IMG/VR virus record: IMGVR_UViG_3300037067_027684
Coordinates: 32,001-96,000 of that record
DNA from: a virus
Lineage: Duplodnaviria > Caudoviricetes
Reading direction: 5' to 3' (one strand)
Length of the DNA: 64,000 nt
The translations under genes were made by a program, and so were the position numbers. Below are positions 14,545-26,805 of this stretch, piece after piece. Under the pieces are notes generated by a model that was given only the letters and a program-made list of their open reading frames with translations, made no database searches and was not told the DNA's origin. Within the stretch, counting starts at the first letter, position 1; the number at the start of each line of letters is the position of its first letter.

Positions 14545-17184
14545 ATGGATATTCGAAAATTTTGGGGAAAAGCTGATAATTCGTTATTTTGGCATCCAGC
14601 GTTATACCATATGATTGATAGTGGTATGGTTGCTAAAGTGTTGTTGAATACTTTGCCAATTAAAATGACCAAAGTACTTACTGATGTTTACACAATAGAT
14701 CAGTTGGCCTATTTTGTTTCTTTGCATGATATTGGTAAGATCACGCCAGGGTTTAATTTTAAGATTTTAGAAGGACGATCAGCCAAATCTTTTGGTTTTT
14801 TGGCGAATCTAGCCGCAGATGAAGGACAATGTGACGCTTCAGATTGTTTACTCTCAAAGGAGTGCTGTTTCTGTAAGAATACAAATAGAAAATATTCTGG
14901 AATGAGTAAAGAAAGTAAGTGGCATAATTTTGGTACCGCTAAAATTTTAAGGGATTTTGGGCAAATAAGAAAAATATTGGGAGCGCATCATGGAACCTTT
15001 TTGACTAATATTAATGATTGCAATATAGGATGTGATAGTTGGTTAATGGCGCAGAAACAGGCTATTAAAGATTTACAGGAAATTTTCATTAAAGACCAAA
15101 CTCCAGTTATCAAGACATTTCAGAATGATTTTATTATGATCTTTGCTGCTTTCGTGGCTATTGCGGATTGGATTAGTTCTAATCAAGATTATTTTAAATG
15201 TGTCAATACTGGAAAGGTCCAGACACACACAATTGAGGAATATGCCATAATATCAGAGAAAATTGCTTCAACAGCAATTGATTCTCTTAATTGGAATTTT
15301 CAACCACATGCTAAAAAGCACGATTTCATAAATTTATTCGGAGTAAAGCCCTATTCTTGGCAAAAGAAGCTTATTACTAAACTCAACAGCCAAAAGAAAC
15401 CATTTCTATTGTTAATAGAAGCACCAACTGGTTGTGGTAAAAGCGAAGCTGCAATGAGCGCTGCTGATATCGCAGAAGCTAAGTTTGGGTATCATGGAAC
15501 GTTTTTTGCTCTTCCCACGCAGGCAGCATCCAATCAGATGTATGGGCGATTTGGACTATTCTTAAAGAATAGACCTTACGGCAACAATTATAAGCCCGAT
15601 TTCCATTTACGTCACCATTTGTCCTTTATGGATCAAGAATATAGAGAAATTAAAAGAAAGACAGTAGAGGGCATATCTAGTGATGTTCTTGCGACTGAAT
15701 GGTTTACAAGATCCAAACAAGGATTGCTGTCGCCATATGCGGTCGGGACCATAGATCAAGCTATTATGGCCGGATTAATGATCAAGCATAACTTTGTAAG
15801 AATGTTTGGTCTACTCAATAAGGTTGTGGTTTTTGATGAAGTTCACTCCTATGATGTGTATTCGAGTAATATATTATATCGAATAATAGAATGGTTAAGT
15901 TATCTTGGTACTTCTGTTGTTGTTCTTTCTGCGACTCTACCGAGACAAAAAAGGAATGAATTAATTAGTTCTTATTGTGGGAAACCAATTAAGACTAGGG
16001 TTAAATATCCTCTATTTGCAGTTGCCAACGAAGATAAAGTTACTTTTAGTCACATTGATTGTCAGAGATATAGATCAATTCGTTATAAGTTTATTGATGA
16101 AAAAGATCTAATTAAGAGGGTTCAAGTACAATTAAGCAGGAATGTAAACGTAGCAGTGGTTCGAAATATTATTGGTGAGGCCCAAGATACTTTTAGATCA
16201 CTGCGAGATTCTTCTGTTGATTGCTCATTGTTTCATGCACGTTTTCCAGCTTATAGACGACGAGAAATTGAAGAGCTTGTTGTTAGGAAATACTCCAAAG
16301 ATAGTAAAAATAGACCCAATAAGTCATTGTTAGTTGCTACTGATGTGATTGGTCAGAGCGTGGATCTGGATTTTGACGTTATGTTCACGGATATAGCTCC
16401 AATCGATATTATGTTGCAGAGGTTGGGTAGGTTATGGCGGCATGATCGTAAGCGTTCGATTAGAGTTCCTACCTTATATGTCATTAGGAAGAGTAGAGAC
16501 TACGAATTTGGAAAAAGTGAAATCATTTATAGTAAATTTATTTTAGACAACACGATGAAAGTTCTTCTCGATAGGTTCAAGACTGGCCAAAACACAATCA
16601 ATAAAATCGATGACGTTGAATTACTGATAAATGGAGTGTACGATGGTAAAATTGCCTCATTAGAAGATGACCCAGAATATCAGAAATCATATGGAAAATA
16701 TCTAAATCGAATACTTGGAAGTAAAATTTTGGCGGGTGAATTTAGGATACCAAGATGTAAAATTGATAGTAATGATTTTATGGCGAGTTTTGGTGACTTT
16801 TTTGATGTTGAAGAGGGTGAATTAACTTTCCCAACTACGAGACTTAAATTGCCGTCAATTCCTATAATTTGTGTTGATTGGAAGGACGGTTCTGAGATTT
16901 CTGTTGACGGTCAAGTTATTAATATAAGTAAAGAACCAGAGTTTGAAGAAATTAAATTACTACTTACAAGATCTGTTAATATTATGATTCAGCCTTGGTT
17001 TAAGTACTTTAGTGATCAGGCTAAAATCAACGGATGGGAAGATACTATTCTTGATCGTTATAGAATTGCAGTATTCGACCAAGAGAGATATGATAACGGT
17101 GAACGATATAAGTTCTTAGTTAACGAGGATGGCGCGATGTTGAGTTTGAATAATATTTTTGGATTGGAATCGAGAAATGTATAA
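14545..17184 (+). CDS. cas3: Type I-E Cas3 HD nuclease-helicase
   Basis: WGK..HMID, LHDIGK, HHG, ADWISS; EAPTGCGKSE Walker A; FDEVH, LSAT, FHARF, QRLGRLWRH. Confidence 0.97.
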   Translation: MDIRKFWGKADNSLFWHPALYHMIDSGMVAKVLLNTLPIKMTKVLTDVYTIDQLAYFVSLHDIGKITPGFNFKILEGRSAKSFGFLANLAADEGQCDASDCLLSKECCFCKNTNRKYSGMSKESKWHNFGTAKILRDFGQIRKILGAHHGTFLTNINDCNIGCDSWLMAQKQAIKDLQEIFIKDQTPVIKTFQNDFIMIFAAFVAIADWISSNQDYFKCVNTGKVQTHTIEEYAIISEKIASTAIDSLNWNFQPHAKKHDFINLFGVKPYSWQKKLITKLNSQKKPFLLLIEAPTGCGKSEAAMSAADIAEAKFGYHGTFFALPTQAASNQMYGRFGLFLKNRPYGNNYKPDFHLRHHLSFMDQEYREIKRKTVEGISSDVLATEWFTRSKQGLLSPYAVGTIDQAIMAGLMIKHNFVRMFGLLNKVVVFDEVHSYDVYSSNILYRIIEWLSYLGTSVVVLSATLPRQKRNELISSYCGKPIKTRVKYPLFAVANEDKVTFSHIDCQRYRSIRYKFIDEKDLIKRVQVQLSRNVNVAVVRNIIGEAQDTFRSLRDSSVDCSLFHARFPAYRRREIEELVVRKYSKDSKNRPNKSLLVATDVIGQSVDLDFDVMFTDIAPIDIMLQRLGRLWRHDRKRSIRVPTLYVIRKSRDYEFGKSEIIYSKFILDNTMKVLLDRFKTGQNTINKIDDVELLINGVYDGKIASLEDDPEYQKSYGKYLNRILGSKILAGEFRIPRCKIDSNDFMASFGDFFDVEEGELTFPTTRLKLPSIPIICVDWKDGSEISVDGQVINISKEPEFEEIKLLLTRSVNIMIQPWFKYFSDQAKINGWEDTILDRYRIAVFDQERYDNGERYKFLVNEDGAMLSLNNIFGLESRNV

Positions 17185-18595
17185 TCTTTTAGAAGAAAAA
17201 TGGATTACGGTGCAGACCCAAAGGGGAGTGAATAAGGTTTCTTTAGTAGAGTTGATTGAGGATGCACATGAGATTTTAGACGTAATTGACAATCCTATAG
17301 TACGAGTTTCAATTTTGAGAGTTGCTTTGTCTATATTATATGAACAGTATCAAATTAGAACTAGTAAGCAGTGGATTAGTCTTTGGAATAAGAGTCGATT
17401 CGACCGAACTCTTTTAGATAAAAAGAAATTTGAATTGTTTGATGATAAAAAGCCATTTTATCAATCGGTTGGTGTTGTTGAACAGAAGAATGCATTTACT
17501 ATCCAGCCCCATTTGGGTGGTAATAATGTTATTTTCTTCAATGATCCACAGAAATTGCGAAGTTTGACTTATGAGGAATCAGCAAAATGGTTGATAACCC
17601 ATCAAATGTGGGCCGTTTGTATGCCGAGCAAAGGCAAATATCTGAAGAATAGTATTTTAACCGGGGGTGTTGTCTTGATTCTTGAAGGTAGTAATTTATT
17701 TGAAACTCTAATGTTGAATATGCTATGTGGTGACCATGTTGGAAACCCAATATGGAGCAGAAAAGAAAATAGTGGATTACTTGACTTGTTGACTTGGCGT
17801 TCTAGAAGCATGAGATTGATATCTGATAATGGAGTTGTTCGAAAAATTGACTATGCTGATGGTGACGAGATTCCTGAGGGTATAGATGATTCGATGCTTG
17901 TTTATGTGATGCGGAAAGGTGAAAAACAAAAATTAACTCTTAATCATGAAAAACAGCTGTGGCGAAATTGTGAGGCTCTTTTTGCAGCAGAAAATAAAGA
18001 TTGTTCGTTGGCACTGAAGCAATTTATAAATTTGTTAAACATGGATTCTGTTCTGGAAGTTACAAATGAAAGATTTAAAACTTTGGAGAAGAGATTCTCG
18101 ATTACAGCAATGATAATCACAAATACCGCGAAAGTACAACACTATGTCTACCAAACATTTCCTATTCCAGAGATGTTCTTTGATCCATCAAAGAGTGAAA
18201 GTAAGAGGGGTGAAATAGGGGCTATGTTACGGAAGGCCAATGAGCTATCTAGGATAATCCGTTTTAATTTCTTGAAGCAAATGAATATTAAAGCGAAGCG
18301 TGGTAAAAGAATTGTGATTGATGGTTACTTAATGGAATATTGGAATATGTTGGAGGTTCCCTTTATGAATTATCTTTCAGACAAACTCAATATGGAACAA
18401 TTTATTGAATTATGCTTTAGGACTACTAATAAGGTTGTTAATAAGATCGTGTCTGATTATTGGAGTGAAGATGCTTTTAAGTTCGTCAAGCTTTGTGGTT
18501 TTGGTATCAGTGCCTTGAAAGAAGGAGAAAAGGTCGATGGAACAAAATCAAGAAATGATATTTCTAAACAGGCTGAAGAGTTTAAAGAAGGATAG
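17177..18595 (+). CDS. cas8e: Cascade large subunit Cas8e (Cse1/CasA)
   Basis: MYNLLEEKWI, FELFD..PFYQ, GSNLFETL.LN, LTWRSR motifs; follows cas3. Confidence 0.9.
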   Translation: MYNLLEEKWITVQTQRGVNKVSLVELIEDAHEILDVIDNPIVRVSILRVALSILYEQYQIRTSKQWISLWNKSRFDRTLLDKKKFELFDDKKPFYQSVGVVEQKNAFTIQPHLGGNNVIFFNDPQKLRSLTYEESAKWLITHQMWAVCMPSKGKYLKNSILTGGVVLILEGSNLFETLMLNMLCGDHVGNPIWSRKENSGLLDLLTWRSRSMRLISDNGVVRKIDYADGDEIPEGIDDSMLVYVMRKGEKQKLTLNHEKQLWRNCEALFAAENKDCSLALKQFINLLNMDSVLEVTNERFKTLEKRFSITAMIITNTAKVQHYVYQTFPIPEMFFDPSKSESKRGEIGAMLRKANELSRIIRFNFLKQMNIKAKRGKRIVIDGYLMEYWNMLEVPFMNYLSDKLNMEQFIELCFRTTNKVVNKIVSDYWSEDAFKFVKLCGFGISALKEGEKVDGTKSRNDISKQAEEFKEG

Positions 18596-18965
18596 GGGTG
18601 CTTTGGCCAAGTTACGTAGAAGCGGCATTGACAGTATCTCAATATTGGCCGATGTACTTCCACGGGATTGGAAGCAAAAATGGTTTTTATTGGTGGCCGA
18701 GTGTTGGGCCGACAATACTAGAGATGGTGGTAGACTTGCTCTTGTTTGTAGAAATTTGAAAATCAACGAAAATAGGTTTAAGGTTTTGGTTTTTAGTGAT
18801 AGAGAGGAATTACCTCAGAGATTGAAGTCGATATTACGAATAATCACACAAAAGGGTTCTGGAGTTAATTGGTCTTGTTTGCTGAATGATCTGATCTATT
18901 GGGGTGAGAGCATTCAGAGAGAGTGGGCGATGGATTTTTGGACAGGAGAAAAGTCACATGAGTAA
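18537..18965 (+). CDS. cas11: Cascade small subunit Cas11 (Cse2/CasB)
   Basis: GALAKLRR..ENRF..VNWSCLLNDLIYW..WAMDFW. Confidence 0.9.
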   Translation: MEQNQEMIFLNRLKSLKKDRGALAKLRRSGIDSISILADVLPRDWKQKWFLLVAECWADNTRDGGRLALVCRNLKINENRFKVLVFSDREELPQRLKSILRIITQKGSGVNWSCLLNDLIYWGESIQREWAMDFWTGEKSHE

Positions 18966-20091
18966 ATTCATTAATATCCACATCATTCACAATTATCCGG
19001 TATCATGTCTTAATCGTGATGATGCTAATACACCAAAAGATTGCGAGATTGGTGGTTATACACGTGCTCGGATCTCTAGCCAATGTCTGAAGAGAGCCGT
19101 TCGATTTCATCTTGGTGGTGAGTTTTCACTTGGGACACGATCACGCCAATTCCCACAACTTCTAATTAATAAACTTATTGCCTCTGGTAAAAACCAAGAT
19201 GCTACCAATAAGCTTGTTGGTCGTGCTTTTGATGCTTTTTCGAGCATGATTAAAGATAAGAGTGATGAAGAGGAAAACACTGTCGAAGAAAACACAGAGG
19301 AACAGAAGTCTGTTTTGTTACATGTCCCTCCGCTCTACGATCAGAAGCTTGATGAAATTTCTAAATTTATATGTGATAACTGGGATAGTCTCAAAGCAGT
19401 TGTCGTAGAATCTAAAGGCAAGAAGACAAAGAAATGGAATCCTAAAAAAGATACCCCTGATTATGAATTAAAGAAGCATATGGAGAAGTTTGTTGGAAAC
19501 CCACAAGACGCTGTTGATATTGCTTTGTTTGGAAGAATGCTTGCCAGCAACACTGATTTTACAGTTGATGGGGTGTGTTCAGTCGCGCACGCATTCTCTA
19601 CAAACAAAATCAAGAAAGATACTGATTTCTTTACTGCGGTTGACGATCTAAGTCATGATTCTGGCGCTGGTATGATGGGGAATATTGATTTCAATAGTGC
19701 TTGTTATTATCAATTTGCTACTGTTGATTATACTAGGTTATCTGAGTTAATGGGGAATGATTCAAAGAAAATTGCTTTGGCCTGCGTTAATGCTTTTGCT
19801 AAGGCAAATCCTTCTGGTAAACAGAATACGATGTGTGCATTAACCCCACCTGATTTTATTTTGGTTGCTATTGGTAATCAGCGTTTGTCATACGCCAATG
19901 CTTTTGTTAAACCTATTCGTCCCGATGAGAAAGATCTTATTACTAACTCAATTGAAGCGTTGATTAAAGAATCTGACTCATTAAAGACGTTCTTTAATCC
20001 GGTTATTTGTTCTTGGTGTCGCTCGATGCAGATAGCCAATTCTGTTTCTGATTATGGTGCTTTCATGACTCAGGTTGGAGAACAATTGTAA
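18958..20091 (+). CDS. cas7: Cascade backbone Cas7 (CasC)
   Basis: CLNRDD..RARISSQCLKRA, DIALFGRM, DFFTAVDD, PSGKQN. Confidence 0.96.
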   Translation: MSKFINIHIIHNYPVSCLNRDDANTPKDCEIGGYTRARISSQCLKRAVRFHLGGEFSLGTRSRQFPQLLINKLIASGKNQDATNKLVGRAFDAFSSMIKDKSDEEENTVEENTEEQKSVLLHVPPLYDQKLDEISKFICDNWDSLKAVVVESKGKKTKKWNPKKDTPDYELKKHMEKFVGNPQDAVDIALFGRMLASNTDFTVDGVCSVAHAFSTNKIKKDTDFFTAVDDLSHDSGAGMMGNIDFNSACYYQFATVDYTRLSELMGNDSKKIALACVNAFAKANPSGKQNTMCALTPPDFILVAIGNQRLSYANAFVKPIRPDEKDLITNSIEALIKESDSLKTFFNPVICSWCRSMQIANSVSDYGAFMTQVGEQL

Positions 20092-20750
20092 TGGCCACTA
20101 TTCTATTGAGAATTAAAGCGCCATTTCAATCTTGGGGTTACCAAGAGAGCACTCATATTAGAGATACCAATAGATATCCTACCAAAAGTGGAATAATTGG
20201 TTTGTGTTGTGCGGCGATTGGGAAACCAAGAGAAGAAACTCCTGATTTCCCAACTTTAGTTGAGTTTGGTGTTCTGAAGATGGGCGTTAGAGTTCTTAAT
20301 TTTGGCTCTAAGATGAGAGATTTTTGTACGGTCGGTAGTGGTATCAACAAGCCTACCTTGGATACTGTGTTTGATAGTAAATGTACTACCAAAAGAAAAG
20401 AGGCTATTATCATAACTAAATATTATTTGGTTGGGGCCGATTTTTTGGTTGCGTTGGAAGGTGATAATGTTTTGTTAGGGCGCATTAAAGCTGGTTTTTT
20501 GAATCCTGTTTTCCCACTCTTTTTTGGTCGTAAAAATTGTCCTCCTGCTTGTGATATTTTAGTGGGTGTTTACGAATCTGGCTTGGTTGAAACGCTGAGA
20601 GATGCAGTTGTTGATGTTGATAAACCAGAAAATCTTTTTATTTTAGAGAGTAACACTGGAGTTTTGGTTAATGATGTCCCATTGATTTCTCGTGAATTTG
20701 GTGTTCGTAGAGTTGTGGAATGTTCTTTGGAGGAATTATCATGTTCCTAA
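20091..20750 (+). CDS. cas5: Cas5e (CasD)
   Basis: APFQSWG..R.T..PTKSGIIGL, YL..ADF, LFFGRK.CPP. Confidence 0.95.
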   Translation: MATILLRIKAPFQSWGYQESTHIRDTNRYPTKSGIIGLCCAAIGKPREETPDFPTLVEFGVLKMGVRVLNFGSKMRDFCTVGSGINKPTLDTVFDSKCTTKRKEAIIITKYYLVGADFLVALEGDNVLLGRIKAGFLNPVFPLFFGRKNCPPACDILVGVYESGLVETLRDAVVDVDKPENLFILESNTGVLVNDVPLISREFGVRRVVECSLEELSCS

Positions 20751-21304
20751 CTCAGATTCAGGTTAATAATTCTCGTATTCTTGGTGATATTTATGGGGTC
20801 CATCAGAAGGTGATGGCATTTGTGGACTCTGAGGAGAGGGTTCTTTATCGAGTTGAGACCGATGACTTTCCTCGAATCCTTGTTCTTTCTGAGGACGAAC
20901 CTAGTAATAAAGTTGATTGGGGTAAGGTAATTATTAAACCATATAATCCTATTATTGCTGTTGGTAGACGATTTAGGTTTAGGTTGTTGGCTAACCCTAC
21001 GCATGTGGTTTCAGTTGGTGGTCATAAGAGGATTAGGATGTTTTTGAAGATCGAGGATCAAGAGAATTGGATTAAAGAAAAGGGCAAGAAATCTGGTTTT
21101 AAGGTTCTAGATCATGTTTTGGTGATAGATAATGGATTTTGTAAGATCAAGAAGCAGTCTGGTTTTGAATGGATCACTAGATCAGTTCTGTTTGAGGGTG
21201 TATTGGAGGTTTCTGATAAGAATTTGTTTTTGTTTAATTTGTTTAATGGGATCGGTCGTTGTAAGGCTTTTGGTTTTGGTTTACTGTCGATTGCTGCTCT
21301 TTGA
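20741..21304 (+). CDS. cas6e: Cas6e (CasE) crRNA endoribonuclease
   Basis: VLYRVE, FRFRLLANPT, FEGVLEV, GIGRCKAFGFGLLS Gly-rich loop. Confidence 0.95.
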   Translation: MFLTQIQVNNSRILGDIYGVHQKVMAFVDSEERVLYRVETDDFPRILVLSEDEPSNKVDWGKVIIKPYNPIIAVGRRFRFRLLANPTHVVSVGGHKRIRMFLKIEDQENWIKEKGKKSGFKVLDHVLVIDNGFCKIKKQSGFEWITRSVLFEGVLEVSDKNLFLFNLFNGIGRCKAFGFGLLSIAAL

Positions 21305-21377
21305 TAATCGAATACTGATTAAACGCTTTAACACCACTGATTGTGTTTCTTATTGCTGCGACATACAATCAGTTGGT
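21305..21377 (+). promoter_or_regulatory. Short CRISPR leader containing an inverted repeat
   Basis: 73-bp AT-rich segment between cas6e and repeat 1; ACACCACTGATTGTGT/ATACAATCAGTTGGTGT. Confidence 0.7.
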
Positions 21378-21997
21378 GTCTTTCCCGCGTAAGCGGGGAT
21401 AAATCGACGATGTTAGATGATGGGCGGAATTTTAGGTCGTCTTTCCCGCGTAAGCGGGGATAAATCGGCGGAACAGATTGACTATGCCGCACCAAAAATG
21501 TCTTTCCCGCGTAAGCGGGGATAAATCGCAATCGCAGTCGGAACTACCTTCTGCACAGACGTCTTTCCCGCGTAAGCGGGGATAAATCGATGGACAAGAA
21601 GATTGACCAGTATCACGACTCGTCTTTCCCGCGTAAGCGGGGATAAATCGTATCCGGCTATTCGTTGTTCGATTTGTCGTGAGTCTTTCCCGCGTAAGCG
21701 GGGATAAATCGGCTCAGGTCTGGAAGGCTCGATTTAGGCATCCGTCTTTCCCGCGTAAGCGGGGATAAATCGCACCCTCTCGCCTAGCGGGGTGTTGGAT
21801 CGTTGTCTTTCCCGCGTAAGCGGGGATAAATCGCCCTGTAGGTCACAGAAGAGATCCGCACCGGCTCCCGCGTAAGCGGGGATAAATCGATGATGGAATC
21901 AGATCAAGTGAAAAGCTTGATTCCCGCGTAAGCGGGGATAAATCGGAGAGACCGGATAGGGCTTATACTTCGGTGGAGTCTCCCGCGTAAGTGGGGA
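21378..21997 (+). CRISPR. Type I-E array: 11 repeats (GTCTTTCCCGCGTAAGCGGGGATAAATCG, 29 nt), 10 spacers of 32 nt
   Basis: Identical repeats at 21378, 21439, 21500, 21561, 21622, 21683, 21744, 21805; 24-nt repeats at 21866 and 21922; degenerate terminal repeat at 21978; resembles the E. coli I-E repeat. Confidence 0.98.
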
Positions 21998-22026
21998 AGT
22001 ATTTGATTCTTTCAAGGAGAACAATA

Positions 22027-23184
22027 ATGTCGAGTATTCCATTAGCCACACGTATCCGACCGAAAACTCTCGCTGAGATAATTGGACAACAGCATATTTT
22101 AGGAGAAGATAAACCATTATTTAAAATGATTAAGGATGATAGAGTAAGTTCGATAATTTTCTACGGCCCAAGTGGTACTGGTAAGACAACACTAGCAGAA
22201 GTAATCTCAAAAATTACAAAACGCAATTTTGTTAAAATGAATGCCGCTAACTGTGGTGTTAAAGAAATTAGATCATTGGCTGAAAAAGCAACAATGACTG
22301 GAATCAGTACAGTATTGTTCCTAGACGAATGTCATAGAGCTACGACTGTATTGATGGACACGCTACTGCCGTTTATTGAGAATGGAGTGTTTGTATTCAT
22401 TGGCGCAACCACTGAGAATGTCTACCATTCATTGACATCAGCATTACTATCAAGATGTCAAGTGTATGTTCTGGAATCATTGTCTGAGACTGAATTAACC
22501 ATGATTATGTTAAGAGGTGTCGAATATTATCGATCAATTAAAAAAGAGGTTAGTCTTGATCCTGAAGCTGTTAAACACATAATTCGTGTTTCTTGTGGCG
22601 ATGGTCGTAAGGTTCTGACTATTCTTGAAATGTTGGTTGAAATTGGTGGTGCATTAGACATTACTCTTGAATTGGCTAGAGCAGTTGCTCCGTCGAAATA
22701 TGTTGTGTATGGAGAAAGTTTGAAGTATGATTACGCTTCTTGGGAGCAGGGGGCGCTTCAAGCTTCAGACCCCGACGCTGCGATTTATGCTCTAGCTAAA
22801 TGGCTTGAATCGGGGGAGGACCCGAGATATATAGCGAGAAGAATAATTATTTCTGCGAGCGAGGACTGTGCTAGTTCTCCATTTGCAGCGATGCTTGCGC
22901 ATTCAGCCTATGTTGCCGCCTGCGAAATAGGAAGACCAGAATGCGATATAGTTCTAGCTCACGCAGTCGTAACTATTGCTACTAGTAAACGTGATAAGTC
23001 AGCGGCAGTAGCGATTTGGTCTGCTCTTAAGGATATCAAAGAAGGTATTGACGTAGCTGTCCCGAAGGAATTGCGAGATTGCCATTATAAAGGCTCTGAG
23101 AAACTTGGCCATGGTGCTTATCACGATGGTATGAATCAATCAGCATATGTAGGTATTAACAAGAAATATTATAAGCCATGGTAA
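22027..23184 (+). CDS. rarA: Replication-associated recombination protein A (RarA/MgsA AAA+ ATPase)
   Basis: PLATRIRPKTL..IGQQH, GPSGTGKTT, LDECHR, GATTEN, SDPDAA..GEDPRYIARR..ASED; AAGGAG SD. Confidence 0.92.
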   Translation: MSSIPLATRIRPKTLAEIIGQQHILGEDKPLFKMIKDDRVSSIIFYGPSGTGKTTLAEVISKITKRNFVKMNAANCGVKEIRSLAEKATMTGISTVLFLDECHRATTVLMDTLLPFIENGVFVFIGATTENVYHSLTSALLSRCQVYVLESLSETELTMIMLRGVEYYRSIKKEVSLDPEAVKHIIRVSCGDGRKVLTILEMLVEIGGALDITLELARAVAPSKYVVYGESLKYDYASWEQGALQASDPDAAIYALAKWLESGEDPRYIARRIIISASEDCASSPFAAMLAHSAYVAACEIGRPECDIVLAHAVVTIATSKRDKSAAVAIWSALKDIKEGIDVAVPKELRDCHYKGSEKLGHGAYHDGMNQSAYVGINKKYYKPW

Positions 23185-24112
23185 ATTCTTTATACCTTTG
23201 ATGTTTCCTATCAAGACATCTAATTGGATCATGCCAAATCCAATTGGCTAATCGTAATGCTTTTCGACAAGAGCAAGTTATCTTGGTAATACTACCAACT
23301 GGATAAGGCCCATTCATTCTCATGTTAATTTTATTGTCGATTAATGATAATAATTCGGAACCAAATGAATTATAAGTGATTGCGAATCCAATGATCAGAT
23401 TATTCTTTCTATTTCTCGTGATATATCCATCGCCGTCCAAGAAACCACGCACAAAATGATCATGATATTTAATTTTTGGTATGTGTTTCTTATATTCTTC
23501 TCCTGGGCAAAGACCATATTTAGCTAATATGTCACATAAATATATGTTGCTTAACTGAATTGCGTCATAATGGAAACCGCGTGAGTCAATATAATGTTTT
23601 ATGATTGATGTTGGTAAAGATAGATCATTAACGAACATTTCAAGCCATGCTCTATCCTTAGCAGCAAGACGAATACCCAACACACTTGGATAATTACCAC
23701 GATTACGAATATGACCATCAGCGTAGATGAATCCAAGATAATAACAGCCAATTTGGTCCATACTCGTAAAGTGAGTTAAATCGGGGTTATGTTTTCTAAT
23801 TTTATCAGCAGCGATACAGGTAGCCTCAAATCTCGTTTTTGAGAGTCCCAATTTATTAAGCCGATAACAAATCGAACGTTGATTAATTTTAAATTTCTTG
23901 CTTAATTCGCATGTGGTAAGATGGCTATGTTTAATTAATTCTTTATCGGTAAATGGTTTCTGGATATTTTCTCGTTTGAGTTTCCACTTCTGACATAGAC
24001 GTTGAATTGTCCATCGTTGGGTCCCAGTAATTCTAGCTATCTCCTTCTGTGATTGACCATTGTAAAACATCTTAACTATTTCGTTATGCTTACTGTGGTG
24101 TAGTACAGTCAT
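23156..24112 (-). CDS. Free-standing LAGLIDADG homing endonuclease with N-terminal HTH repeats
   Basis: YYLGFIYADG and FVRGFLDGDG motifs; LDRK end; AGGAGG SD; opposite orientation to neighbours. Confidence 0.88.
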   Translation of the reverse strand: MTVLHHSKHNEIVKMFYNGQSQKEIARITGTQRWTIQRLCQKWKLKRENIQKPFTDKELIKHSHLTTCELSKKFKINQRSICYRLNKLGLSKTRFEATCIAADKIRKHNPDLTHFTSMDQIGCYYLGFIYADGHIRNRGNYPSVLGIRLAAKDRAWLEMFVNDLSLPTSIIKHYIDSRGFHYDAIQLSNIYLCDILAKYGLCPGEEYKKHIPKIKYHDHFVRGFLDGDGYITRNRKNNLIIGFAITYNSFGSELLSLIDNKINMRMNGPYPVGSITKITCSCRKALRLANWIWHDPIRCLDRKHQRYKEFTMAYNISC

Positions 24113-24239
24113 CTGATCCTCCTGCTAAAATATATACTTGTCGCGATTGTCTTTCGTAGATTTTGGCTGAATATCGGGATAGGTATTTAAGTATCATGAA
24201 AACCTGATAAACAGAATGACATGGGTAAAGGAGAAATAA

Positions 24240-24518
24240 ATGATTGACGAGCCGATCACAGAGGAAGCACCTTTGGTTGAGTCTCAGGGTGAGATTGTCA
24301 TGAAGGTTATTTCCGCGCATGGCGATGACCGGTTGATTTGGGATCGTCATTTTATTGATTCTATTAAGGAAGCTCGTGACAAGTTTTATGACCTGTTGTC
24401 CAAGGGCTATCAGGCTTTTGCTGTGAAGATGGATGGTAAGAAATCTAATCGGCGTATGTTCAAGTTTGATCCTAAAGTTGAAGAAATCATCATGGTCCCA
24501 ATGCTCGTTGGGGGCTAA
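24240..24518 (+). CDS. Small protein ending in Gly-Gly (ubiquitin/ThiS-like C-terminus)
   Basis: AAGGAG SD; ends FDPKVEEIIMVPMLVGG-stop. Confidence 0.75.
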   Translation: MIDEPITEEAPLVESQGEIVMKVISAHGDDRLIWDRHFIDSIKEARDKFYDLLSKGYQAFAVKMDGKKSNRRMFKFDPKVEEIIMVPMLVGG

Positions 24519-24529
24519 GGGAGATCAAC

Positions 24530-25339
24530 ATGGCTATAACCAACTCACCGTATCTAGTTGGGTCTGGTGGATCTACAACGCCTGGTGGATCTTCAACACC
24601 AAGTGGAATTGTGTACTCTAATTATGTTGCACCACAATATACTAAATCAACAATTATTGCTCCAATTTCATATCGACCGTCTGTACGAATAACTGATGTC
24701 ACAACAGATAATAATGGCTTTATAAATGGGATATCCGAAGCCGTTAATATCGTGCACGATACTACTATTGTTTATACTACCATGCAAAATAGTGTCTATT
24801 TGAACTTCAGCAGTGTCACAAGTACCAGCACTTATTACTACAATTATAATTACGACTATGTGACTGGCGCATCTGGCTTTGATAAGAAGACATCACATCG
24901 TAACAGAATTCGTCGGCAGTTAATGCCAACTGAACAGCCACAAAACGCTGCATTGTTGGCTTGCAATAGTAACCCTGCAGAATTGAGGGCTAGAGGTTTG
25001 TTGCGTGAGATTATTGGTGCTGAAGAATTTAGGAATTATTTGCGTCGTGGTTTTGTGACGGTTAAGGGGCGATCTGGGATGATCTATCGAGTTAGTGGTG
25101 GGCATAATGTAATTTACAGTTATGTTCGTAATTCTAAGGGGAAATATGAGAAGTTCGAAAGCATTTGTGTTGTCTTTAAGGATGGTGTAAATCTTCCTTA
25201 CTCCGATTGGGTTGTAATGCGGATTTTGCTGGTCCAGAATGACGAATTTGCTCTGCGTAAAGTTGCGAATGTTAGTAAGGTGGGTTCTCAATTGACGTTC
25301 GTTGATGGTGGTGTGAACCAGTACGCGATAGCGGTCTAA
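24530..25339 (+). CDS. Hypothetical partner protein of the GG-terminated protein
   Basis: GGAG SD; low-complexity S/T/Y N-half; C-domain AELRARGLL..GFVTVKG.SG..YRV..IC..LP.SD..NDE..AN. Confidence 0.7.
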   Translation: MAITNSPYLVGSGGSTTPGGSSTPSGIVYSNYVAPQYTKSTIIAPISYRPSVRITDVTTDNNGFINGISEAVNIVHDTTIVYTTMQNSVYLNFSSVTSTSTYYYNYNYDYVTGASGFDKKTSHRNRIRRQLMPTEQPQNAALLACNSNPAELRARGLLREIIGAEEFRNYLRRGFVTVKGRSGMIYRVSGGHNVIYSYVRNSKGKYEKFESICVVFKDGVNLPYSDWVVMRILLVQNDEFALRKVANVSKVGSQLTFVDGGVNQYAIAV

Positions 25340-25348
25340 AAGGAGAAA

Positions 25349-25708
25349 ATGATGAGAATTGCTCTAGCGTTGCTGTCTTTGGTTTTGTTGTCCTCCTGTA
25401 CGTATGAGGAATCATTCTTTGGATGGGGTGGACCTAATCCGAAGGCTACCGAGGAAAAGGAAGCAGCAGCAGAAGTATTTGGCGTTCGTGGTCAGGTTGT
25501 CACATTGACCTATAAATTGCTCAAAACTGAACAGAATGATAGGTGCGTCTTGTGTGGCAATAAAACCACTCTTTATGCACAGGACATCAAGCTTAATGGT
25601 CATGAAGTTCTCAAGTCCAGCATTCCAGTTTGTAATCGAGAGTTATGCCTACATCTTTGGGTTGAGAAATACGTAGGCTTCGACGTTGATAAGGTTAAGA
25701 AGAAATGA
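25349..25708 (+). CDS. Putative lipoprotein
   Basis: Signal peptide with LLSSC lipobox; CVLC..C..C. Confidence 0.6.
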   Translation: MMRIALALLSLVLLSSCTYEESFFGWGGPNPKATEEKEAAAEVFGVRGQVVTLTYKLLKTEQNDRCVLCGNKTTLYAQDIKLNGHEVLKSSIPVCNRELCLHLWVEKYVGFDVDKVKKK

Positions 25709-26100
25709 GAGAAACAGTCGAATTTCATTGTAATGACTGCTCAGGTTATTTTCTGGTCAACCTGAATGTTGGTTGGACTGGGATGTTCCTGTTTGTGTGC
25801 CCCGAATGTGGGCGGGAGCATCCCAGGACGATCACTAAGGGTGTGATGGATAGCACTCAATATGGAGTTAGGGCAATGAAGGACAAGAAAGTTCCAGTCT
25901 CTGTTACTAGAGATACTTATGCTGAGAAAGATGAGCGTCGTGAGCGTATTGTGGTGATGAAATCTGCTTATAGTAAGACTCCAAGGTTGGATTGTCTCGC
26001 TAATAGGATGTGGATTTCTGGTGGTGCTAGTAGTCTGTTTTTGGCAAACGTAAGAGCACGTTCCGAAGAAGAGCGTTTGTCTTTTCAGGAGAAGAAATAA
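25705..26100 (+). CDS. Zn-ribbon protein
   Basis: CNDC..CPECG.EH; ATGA coupling. Confidence 0.65.
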   Translation: MRETVEFHCNDCSGYFLVNLNVGWTGMFLFVCPECGREHPRTITKGVMDSTQYGVRAMKDKKVPVSVTRDTYAEKDERRERIVVMKSAYSKTPRLDCLANRMWISGGASSLFLANVRARSEEERLSFQEKK

Positions 26101-26393
26101 TGTCAGATGAAAAAGAACTTGGAGAGTCTTTGGTTGCTCTTCAGTTGGTTTGTCTTCTTAATAGTAACCTGAATGATGTTTTGGAAAACGATGAAGAGAC
26201 AGGTGCATGTTTTGTGTTTCAAAGTGATGGGTTTACATCGTCTATTGAATTCCTTGGTGTACAGATTTGGACTGAAGACAATGGTCCTATTGATGAGAAA
26301 AATATCGAAGATATGAAGAAGCAAGTTAAGGGAATAATGCATAGACTTCGTGCTGCGACTGATGTTGAGGAACTTTTCAAAGCCCCGATTTAA
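26100..26393 (+). CDS. Hypothetical acidic protein
   Basis: TAATG coupling. Confidence 0.6.
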   Translation: MSDEKELGESLVALQLVCLLNSNLNDVLENDEETGACFVFQSDGFTSSIEFLGVQIWTEDNGPIDEKNIEDMKKQVKGIMHRLRAATDVEELFKAPI

Positions 26394-26403
26394 GGAGACA
26401 TCT

Positions 26404-26805
26404 GTGTCAGACAAATGTGAAACTACGCTTCCGAAGACTAAGTCTGCTGCTAAGGCGGGTAAACCAGAAGTGTTGAATAAATATAGATTCCAAAATTATG
26501 ACGATGGCAAGATTCATGTTCATGATGATGAATTGGGATTGGTATTTATTTGTTTAGATACTAGGCGTTTTCAGCTTGGTATTGATTCGTTTATTAAGAA
26601 GGCAGATTTGTTGCCAATGGGCCATATCGCAGTAATCAAGACTGATACTGTGCTTGTCTCAAGCAGAAAGTTGGCTGACGTTGTTTTGACCAAGACTCCT
26701 GAAGGTTGGAATTTTGCTTTATCTGAGGCAGGTGTGGCTAAGGCTGATTCTTTTGCTGCGGATGAGGTTCTTACTTTCTTGGATGATTTTGTCCAGAGGA
26801 TTTAA
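26404..26805 (+). CDS. Hypothetical protein
   Basis: AAGGAG SD before GTG 26404. Confidence 0.6.
   Translation: MSDKCETTLPKTKSAAKAGKPEVLNKYRFQNYDDGKIHVHDDELGLVFICLDTRRFQLGIDSFIKKADLLPMGHIAVIKTDTVLVSSRKLADVVLTKTPEGWNFALSEAGVAKADSFAADEVLTFLDDFVQRI

Follow-up and report, generated by a model that had tools for sequence, protein, structure and literature searches.

The window analysed here is a 64,000 nt stretch of a virus record of 246,684 nt that is 91 % complete, and two adjacent genes within it, A and B, are each present as a single copy in that record. Gene A (24240–24518, + strand) encodes a protein of 92 residues that ends in EEIIMVPMLVGG followed by a TAA stop codon, and a Shine–Dalgarno-like site is recognizable in the sequence upstream of it (24227–24235, + strand). 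Gene B (24530–25339, + strand) begins after a gap of 11 nt and encodes a protein of 269 residues, in which a low-complexity N-terminal arm rich in Thr, Ser, Tyr and Asn precedes a folded C-terminal domain (approximately residues 148–250). This domain contains Cys213 (codon at 25166–25168, + strand) within the motif ESICVV, and an LPYSD motif of the form LPxxD, with Pro223 and Asp226. The reading frames, the intergenic gap, the Gly-Gly end and both of these motifs are present as an earlier note on this sequence had described them, and the downstream genes lie close together in the same orientation, in keeping with the operon-like packing that it reported; the 'motif B' that it mentioned without a definition was not recovered, no repeated upstream motif being seen beyond the Shine–Dalgarno site.

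The downstream genes include C (25705–26100, + strand), coding for a zinc-finger protein of 131 residues with four invariant Cys residues followed by His-x-Arg, and D (26350–26805, + strand), whose real start probably lies near 26404 and which encodes a small protein with an invariant H-x-H-x-D and no family match. Searches of family libraries with C and D returned nothing beyond generic zinc ribbons. Farther along, the segment 27827–28723 encodes a protein of 298 residues with a DnaJ-type CxxCxGxG zinc-binding segment. On the other side of the pair lies a phage-encoded type I-E CRISPR–Cas system (14545–21997; Cas3, Cse1, Cse2, Cas7, Cas5 and Cas6), directly followed by a CRISPR array of about 11 repeats with 56–61 nt spacing, such that there is no space for cas1 and cas2 between them. 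Between this system and gene A is a gene for an MgsA/RarA AAA+ protein that is convergent with a gene for an HTH-LAGLIDADG endonuclease (21991–24112). We note that in a related locus (L005) the MgsA gene is immediately upstream of gene A and is interrupted by an intein, and the free-standing endonuclease gene is absent there.

A search of 1.8 billion representatives placed gene A in a family, as yet unnamed, that comprises 646 clusters (E ≤0.001). Gly is the last residue of 142 of the 153 relatives, even though insertions occur just upstream of it, and the last two residues are GG in 94, PG in 27, AG in 16, KG in 3 and PS in 3, so that non-GG tails of the latter four types make up approximately one third of the family (49/153). 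Residues beyond the Gly are seen in about 7 % of the relatives, with no JAB peptidase gene nearby. The near-invariant feature of the family is the final Gly, not Gly-Gly, and of the Gly-Gly whose invariance the earlier note had set as a check it is the terminal residue that stands and the pair as such that does not. As a measure of chance background, 10 of 1228 mechanically derived ORFs of the genome end in GG.

Two trivial origins for this ending were considered and rejected. A by-product of the Shine–Dalgarno sequence of gene B is ruled out by the use of all four Gly codons at the penultimate position (GGC 23, GGA 21, GGG 17 and GGT 16), which shows that the terminal Gly is selected at the protein level; GGA is mildly enriched at the tail Gly (27 %, compared with 14 % at other Gly residues). 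Read-through from A into B is ruled out by the mixture of stop codons (TGA 46, TAA 23 and TAG 22) and by the relative frames of the two genes, with B in frame with A at just 8 of 73 loci and out of frame behind a TAA codon in the window copy. Since the Gly stands directly before the stop whichever stop codon is used, and with no fixed frame relative to B, it is the free carboxyl end that is under selection. At one locus (L089, 4932–6020) A and B are fused in frame; the junction resembles a single TGA-to-TTA loss of the stop codon, and it may be a sequencing error.

An AlphaFold2 model of the A protein (pLDDT 81) has strands at residues 18–25 and 28–35, a helix at 39–54, and strands at 58–62, 68–73 and 82–86, the tail PMLVGG following the last of these. 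This strand–strand–helix–strand–strand–strand topology is that of a β-grasp domain (core residues 18–86), and β-grasp domains fill most of the top rows of a fold search (Z 3.4–5.7), the best of them at Z 5.7, below Z 8, with an rmsd of 3.7 over 62 aligned residues. The ubiquitin-like shape that had been suspected is thus borne out by prediction, in a divergent form. A degenerate second copy of the domain precedes the β-grasp in 23 of the 153 A proteins, chiefly those of the PG type. Foldseek gave no match with E below 0.001, the ESM Atlas returned nothing but unnamed clusters, and there were no matches in Pfam, PHROGs, NCBIfam or PDB sequences. Nor can A be placed among the MoaD/ThiS/SAMP families to which its C-terminus had been likened; the ThiS/MoaD profiles (PF02597; NCBIfam moaD and thiS) were compared with 82 family members without a Pfam ThiS match, and the sole NCBIfam moaD match had an E-value of 0.092.

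The candidate nucleophile of B is invariant, Cys213 and Asp226 being retained in all 95 full-length domains (96 distinct pairs, approximately 30 % mean identity) and Pro223 in 89, and this conservation is independent of how the cognate A protein ends. In 52 of the 95 domains the equivalent of Cys213 is the only Cys. A His is found two residues after the Cys, also in 52 of 95 (it is Val in the window copy), and no other invariant His was found in the domain, such that B appears better suited to the role of an acceptor than to that of a protease. In the relatives of B a low-complexity arm is followed, in many cases after a charged helical stretch, by a folded domain of about 105 residues. Family-wide, Thr makes up 19 % of the arm, Ser 10 %, Trp 6 % and Lys 1.4 %, and 70 of 79 relatives have a W-x-x-W in it. 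In some (e.g. L016, L018 and L115) it is made of Lys-poor repeats rich in Thr, Ser, Trp and Asn with W-x-x-W-N, followed by the charged helical stretch.

The predicted fold of the B domain runs in the order helix, antiparallel four-stranded sheet and two helices. The best four rows of the fold search are RWD/UBC-like (4y1l_C, 2yz0, 2daw and 7e2k), with rmsds of 3.1–4.9 over 84–93 residues and Z 4.3–4.8, which is at background level. Foldseek gave no clear match, from which a new fold does not follow, and none was found in Pfam, PHROGs, NCBIfam or PDB sequences. The E2 profiles of Pfam and NCBIfam, UQ_con and the Prok-E2 families included, did not match any of 76 family members, alignment of the B profile with 23 bacterial E2s by hhalign gave a probability of 0.2 %, and the HPN-to-Cys motif of E2 enzymes is absent. 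In RWD/UBC terms the B Cys ends the last strand, whereas that of an E2 lies in the flap after HPN, and RWD domains are without the Cys (PMC1779556). In our reading B works like an E2, yet it cannot be filed as one.

The linkage of the two genes is strict, as had been anticipated. B adjoins A at 127 of 148 loci, a count that includes redundant contigs, with 19 of the others ending early and 2 without B (104 of 124 in a first set, 18 ending early and the same 2 without B, and 23 of 24 in a second). A is almost always upstream, and its stop codon often overlaps the start of B; a single locus (L038, 4249–5270) has the reverse order. In several lineages (L018, L071, L115 and L152) genes that by eye resemble endonuclease genes lie between the two. 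The distance matrices of A and B are correlated over 96 pairs (Mantel r 0.71, with 999 shuffles reaching no more than 0.15), a result that shared ancestry alone can yield. The family is mostly viral and includes Rctr197k and LR756511; among 301 genomes sampled from one bacterial phylum, it was present in a single one. A minimal pair is also found on 13 Bradyrhizobium plasmids, in several copies on some, with the two genes adjacent. In this form, which comes from cultured strains (WP_247973535.1 with WP_346732911.1, and WLC03347.1 with WLC03346.1), A has 73 residues and ends in RLVGG, and B has about 140 residues and no arm, indicating that the arm is dispensable for the core. The Rctr197k pair locus sits between two CRISPR arrays, and a second, divergent B-like gene without an adjoining A is located 1.9 kb past the pair (L001, 8144–8983).

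A complex of A with B was predicted with a score of 0.76, compared with 0.01 for the best of three controls; this value may in part reflect solved E2~ubiquitin complexes, whose closed pose we take the interface to recall. A score of 0.76 is reached by 58 of 80 solved pairs and by 2 of 110 mismatched ones, a calibration that is roughly valid only, as custom alignments were used. Contact agreement between runs is at least 98 %, the partner pLDDT is at least 85, and there are 77–85 contacts. The tail of A (MLVGG and the stop codon, 24501–24518, + strand) is predicted to form a β-strand, residues 86–92 pairing with Cys213 to Gly219 of B, and Ile24, Phe60, Ile84 and Val86 of A would pack on the helix that follows Cys213. 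The docking of the Gly-Gly tail at the partner Cys that had been envisaged is thus reproduced in the model, which lends support to binding of A to B but demonstrates neither that nor a bond between them.

An interface of this size could also be that of an inhibitor. B might be a cysteine enzyme (a protease or isopeptidase) or a toxin-like protein with some other substrate, and A a plug-like inhibitor or regulator whose terminal Gly fills the active site. The strict one-to-one coupling, with A upstream and often overlapping stop and start codons, is as in toxin–antitoxin pairs, and the occurrence on both phages and plasmids and the tolerance of varied tails are readily accommodated. B has, however, no conserved catalytic dyad besides the Cys and Asp, and a ubiquitin-shaped protein that presents its terminal Gly to a Cys usually points to acyl chemistry; we therefore regard this explanation as rather unlikely.

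As an alternative to a tagging system, the earlier note had suggested a ubiquitin-like decoy, in which case the pair would obstruct immune systems that rely on conjugation (Bil, Bub or type II CBASS). The pair does reside mainly in phages, with the one occurrence among 301 bacterial genomes noted above, and a Bub chain is among the generic β-grasp rows for A (Z 4.1). Neither protein, however, resembles a solved Ubl or E2 in sequence, the surface of A would, according to the model, already be occupied by B, the pair is also carried by plasmids of a symbiotic bacterium, and no linkage data point to defence. We found no evidence supporting such a role and consider it highly improbable; a dedicated Cys partner that co-diverges with A, together with the Bradyrhizobium copies, is better accommodated by a self-contained module.

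In large phages the module is larger. Gene C is beside the pair at all 20 distinct large-phage loci and gene D at no fewer than 14 of them; both are single-copy and close to the pair in genomes of 364–595 kb. General synteny as the source of this linkage is ruled out, as the order of the four genes is shuffled between loci and the next commonest family is present at only 3 of the 20, A, B, C and D being the only families that recur across them. The 16 records examined from the other class of A, and three plasmids, yielded neither C nor D. This distribution defines two classes, one of two genes and one of three to four, and the window belongs to the second.

No activating enzyme travels with the pair. 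The absence of E1/ThiF and sulfur-transfer genes that had been noted for the window extends to the whole 246,684 nt record (91 % complete), in which models of ThiF/E1, JAB, rhodanese and cysteine desulfurase gave no match; an E2 search of the record was blank, but its control gave no match either. A ThiF gene was detected in 9 of the 40 pair-carrying records (0 of 14 near-complete genomes, which are mostly smaller, but 5 of the 7 that are huge), for the most part distant from the pair or in other cassettes. ThiF-family genes were matched in 12 of 14 control genomes, and hosts thus usually have such an enzyme.

We infer that A serves as a ubiquitin-like tag, with B as the acyl acceptor dedicated to it. 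B would bind the hydrophobic sheet face of A and thread its tail to Cys213. A free carboxyl end does not form a thioester unaided, and the terminal carboxyl of A would be activated by a ThiF/MoeB-type E1, either borrowed from the host or encoded by a distant phage gene. Cys213 would then attack the activated A to give an A~B thioester, from which B, combining the roles of E2 and E3, would transfer A to an amine of a target protein. The variable low-complexity arm of B and, in the large phages, the zinc finger of C together with D would direct this transfer to targets, and they may also take the tag off again. The terminal Gly, β-grasp prediction, linkage, co-divergence, invariant Cys and Asp, predicted complex and E1-bearing controls all count in favour of this reading. 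Against it are the lack of an E1 that travels with the pair, tails with residues past the Gly and no JAB nearby, and a B protein that has no HPN-to-Cys motif and a profile that does not align with bacterial E2s. Moreover, MoeB and ThiF prefer Gly-Gly, to which the PG, KG, AG and PS tails are a poor fit, and recognition of A by a host E1 is not obvious given that it matches no ThiS/MoaD profile. Activation by a host E1 followed by thioester formation and transfer is accordingly a tentative proposal, to which we would give somewhat short of an even chance, while covalent chemistry between A and the Cys, by this route or by the self-sufficient one described below, seems on balance probable.

The same features may be read as those of a sulfur relay, in which A would carry sulfur and B, bearing a persulfide, would generate or consume the A thiocarboxylate, as in MoaD–MoaE or ThiS–ThiG. 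A β-grasp protein with terminal Gly-Gly and a single invariant Cys in its partner would be expected, and the tail of MoaD is inserted into MoaE much as in the predicted A–B complex. The genome has no match to rhodanese, cysteine desulfurase or ThiF, however, no sulfur-using enzyme was found to recur beside the pair, and the tails are often non-GG, such that this seems decidedly unlikely.

A further explanation, which would dispense with activation, is that B is a self-sufficient transpeptidase. Cys213 would cut the last peptide bond of A, freeing the terminal Gly or a longer extension, and A would be held as a thioester and ligated to an amine without ATP, like the stand-alone E2 of E2-CBASS. 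This would account for the lack of an E1 or JAB travelling with the pair and for the extensions past the Gly that are tolerated in some A relatives, and the predicted contact register (B214 with A89/90, and B216 with A87–89) would place the Cys near A91–92. There is a precedent in the Serratia E2, which by itself cleaves the final residue off its partner and makes both thioester and isopeptide bonds (10.1101/2022.05.25.493364). That enzyme requires His87, however (10.1101/2022.05.25.493364), whereas B has no universal His. In addition, E2-CBASS keeps a conserved Gly and loses the residue after it, whereas here the Gly is itself last, and the residue that would remain varies (G, P, A or K). We regard a transpeptidase as fairly unlikely, and put at a similarly low level its fuller form, an ATP-independent two-protein kit of phages and plasmids in which an unrecognized cysteine transpeptidase, remotely E2/RWD-like, ligates its own tag to targets, and which is supplemented in large phages by a zinc-finger adaptor and by an HxHxD protein with a possible role in tag removal.

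The pair shares its logic with E2-only CBASS, Bil/Bub and MoaD–MoaE but differs from each in a defining feature. E2-only CBASS, represented by the Serratia CdnG and its stand-alone E2, has no E1 or JAB in the operon (10.1101/2022.05.25.493364; PMC12948482), and consists similarly of one cysteine enzyme and one Gly-tailed partner whose β-sheet packs on the enzyme, as is predicted here. Its tag is a nucleotide cyclase with one residue past the Gly, whereas A is a small β-grasp protein ending at the Gly; the E2 of that system closely resembles human E2 in structure and depends on His87, whereas B has neither an E2 motif nor a universal His; and its loci comprise a CD-NTase partner and an effector gene, whereas those described here have a small β-grasp partner, of 92 residues in the window, and are carried by phages and plasmids. 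Bil and Bub resemble the pair in having a Ubl with a terminal Gly and an E2-like acceptor without an E3 (PMC10557695; PMC11601596; PMC11601603), and in Ubls with more than one β-grasp, which may be compared with the degenerate second copy in some A proteins. They are host defence loci with an E1 of their own and, in most cases, a peptidase, whereas the A–B pair has no linked E1 and no sequence match to them, and Bub uses Tyr and Ser oxyesters (PMC10557695; PMC11601596; PMC11601603) where B has a Cys. With MoaD–MoaE, ThiS–ThiG, SAMP and Urm1 (PF02597 and its kin) there is a common β-grasp, a Gly-Gly in the window copy and a tail that enters the partner, but no profile match or sulfur-relay genes, and the A family is approximately one-third non-GG. 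Operon types 5 and 6a–e of Iyer, Burroughs and Aravind (2006) likewise include Ubls of prokaryotes and phages that end in Gly and lie in mobile clusters, although in the available part of that source these clusters carry JAB and/or E1 and none is a Ubl with a lone Cys partner (PMC1779556).

No description of the pair was found in the literature searched, which covers few subscription journals, in agreement with its having been thought undescribed. It is a real, undescribed variant of the ubiquitin-like systems, the chemistry of which is inferred, and the non-GG tails, the linked genes C and D and the cultured Bradyrhizobium carriers are new here. The known prokaryotic ubiquitin-like conjugation pathways, as described in the literature covered, are host systems, mostly with their own E1. 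If the proposed chemistry is correct, mobile elements would run tagging chemistry of their own, with a borrowed host E1 or none, and the two-gene version would span hundreds of phage lineages as well as rhizobial plasmids; unnamed families of Ubl and cysteine enzyme, and perhaps a compact protein ligase, would be added to those known. The Bradyrhizobium copies are small and come from cultured strains, which makes the question directly testable.

Two further arrangements were seen among the pair-carrying records. In 1 of the 40 a full ThiF/MoeB-type E1 gene (L145, 5030–5782) runs convergently to B and overlaps its 3′ end. In four others (L128, L131, L162 and L163) ThiF, JAB-like and small genes form phage cassettes of their own, the products of the small genes ending in TPFGSV or AGQKG, and these are apparently other ubiquitin-like systems that are unlinked to the A–B pair.
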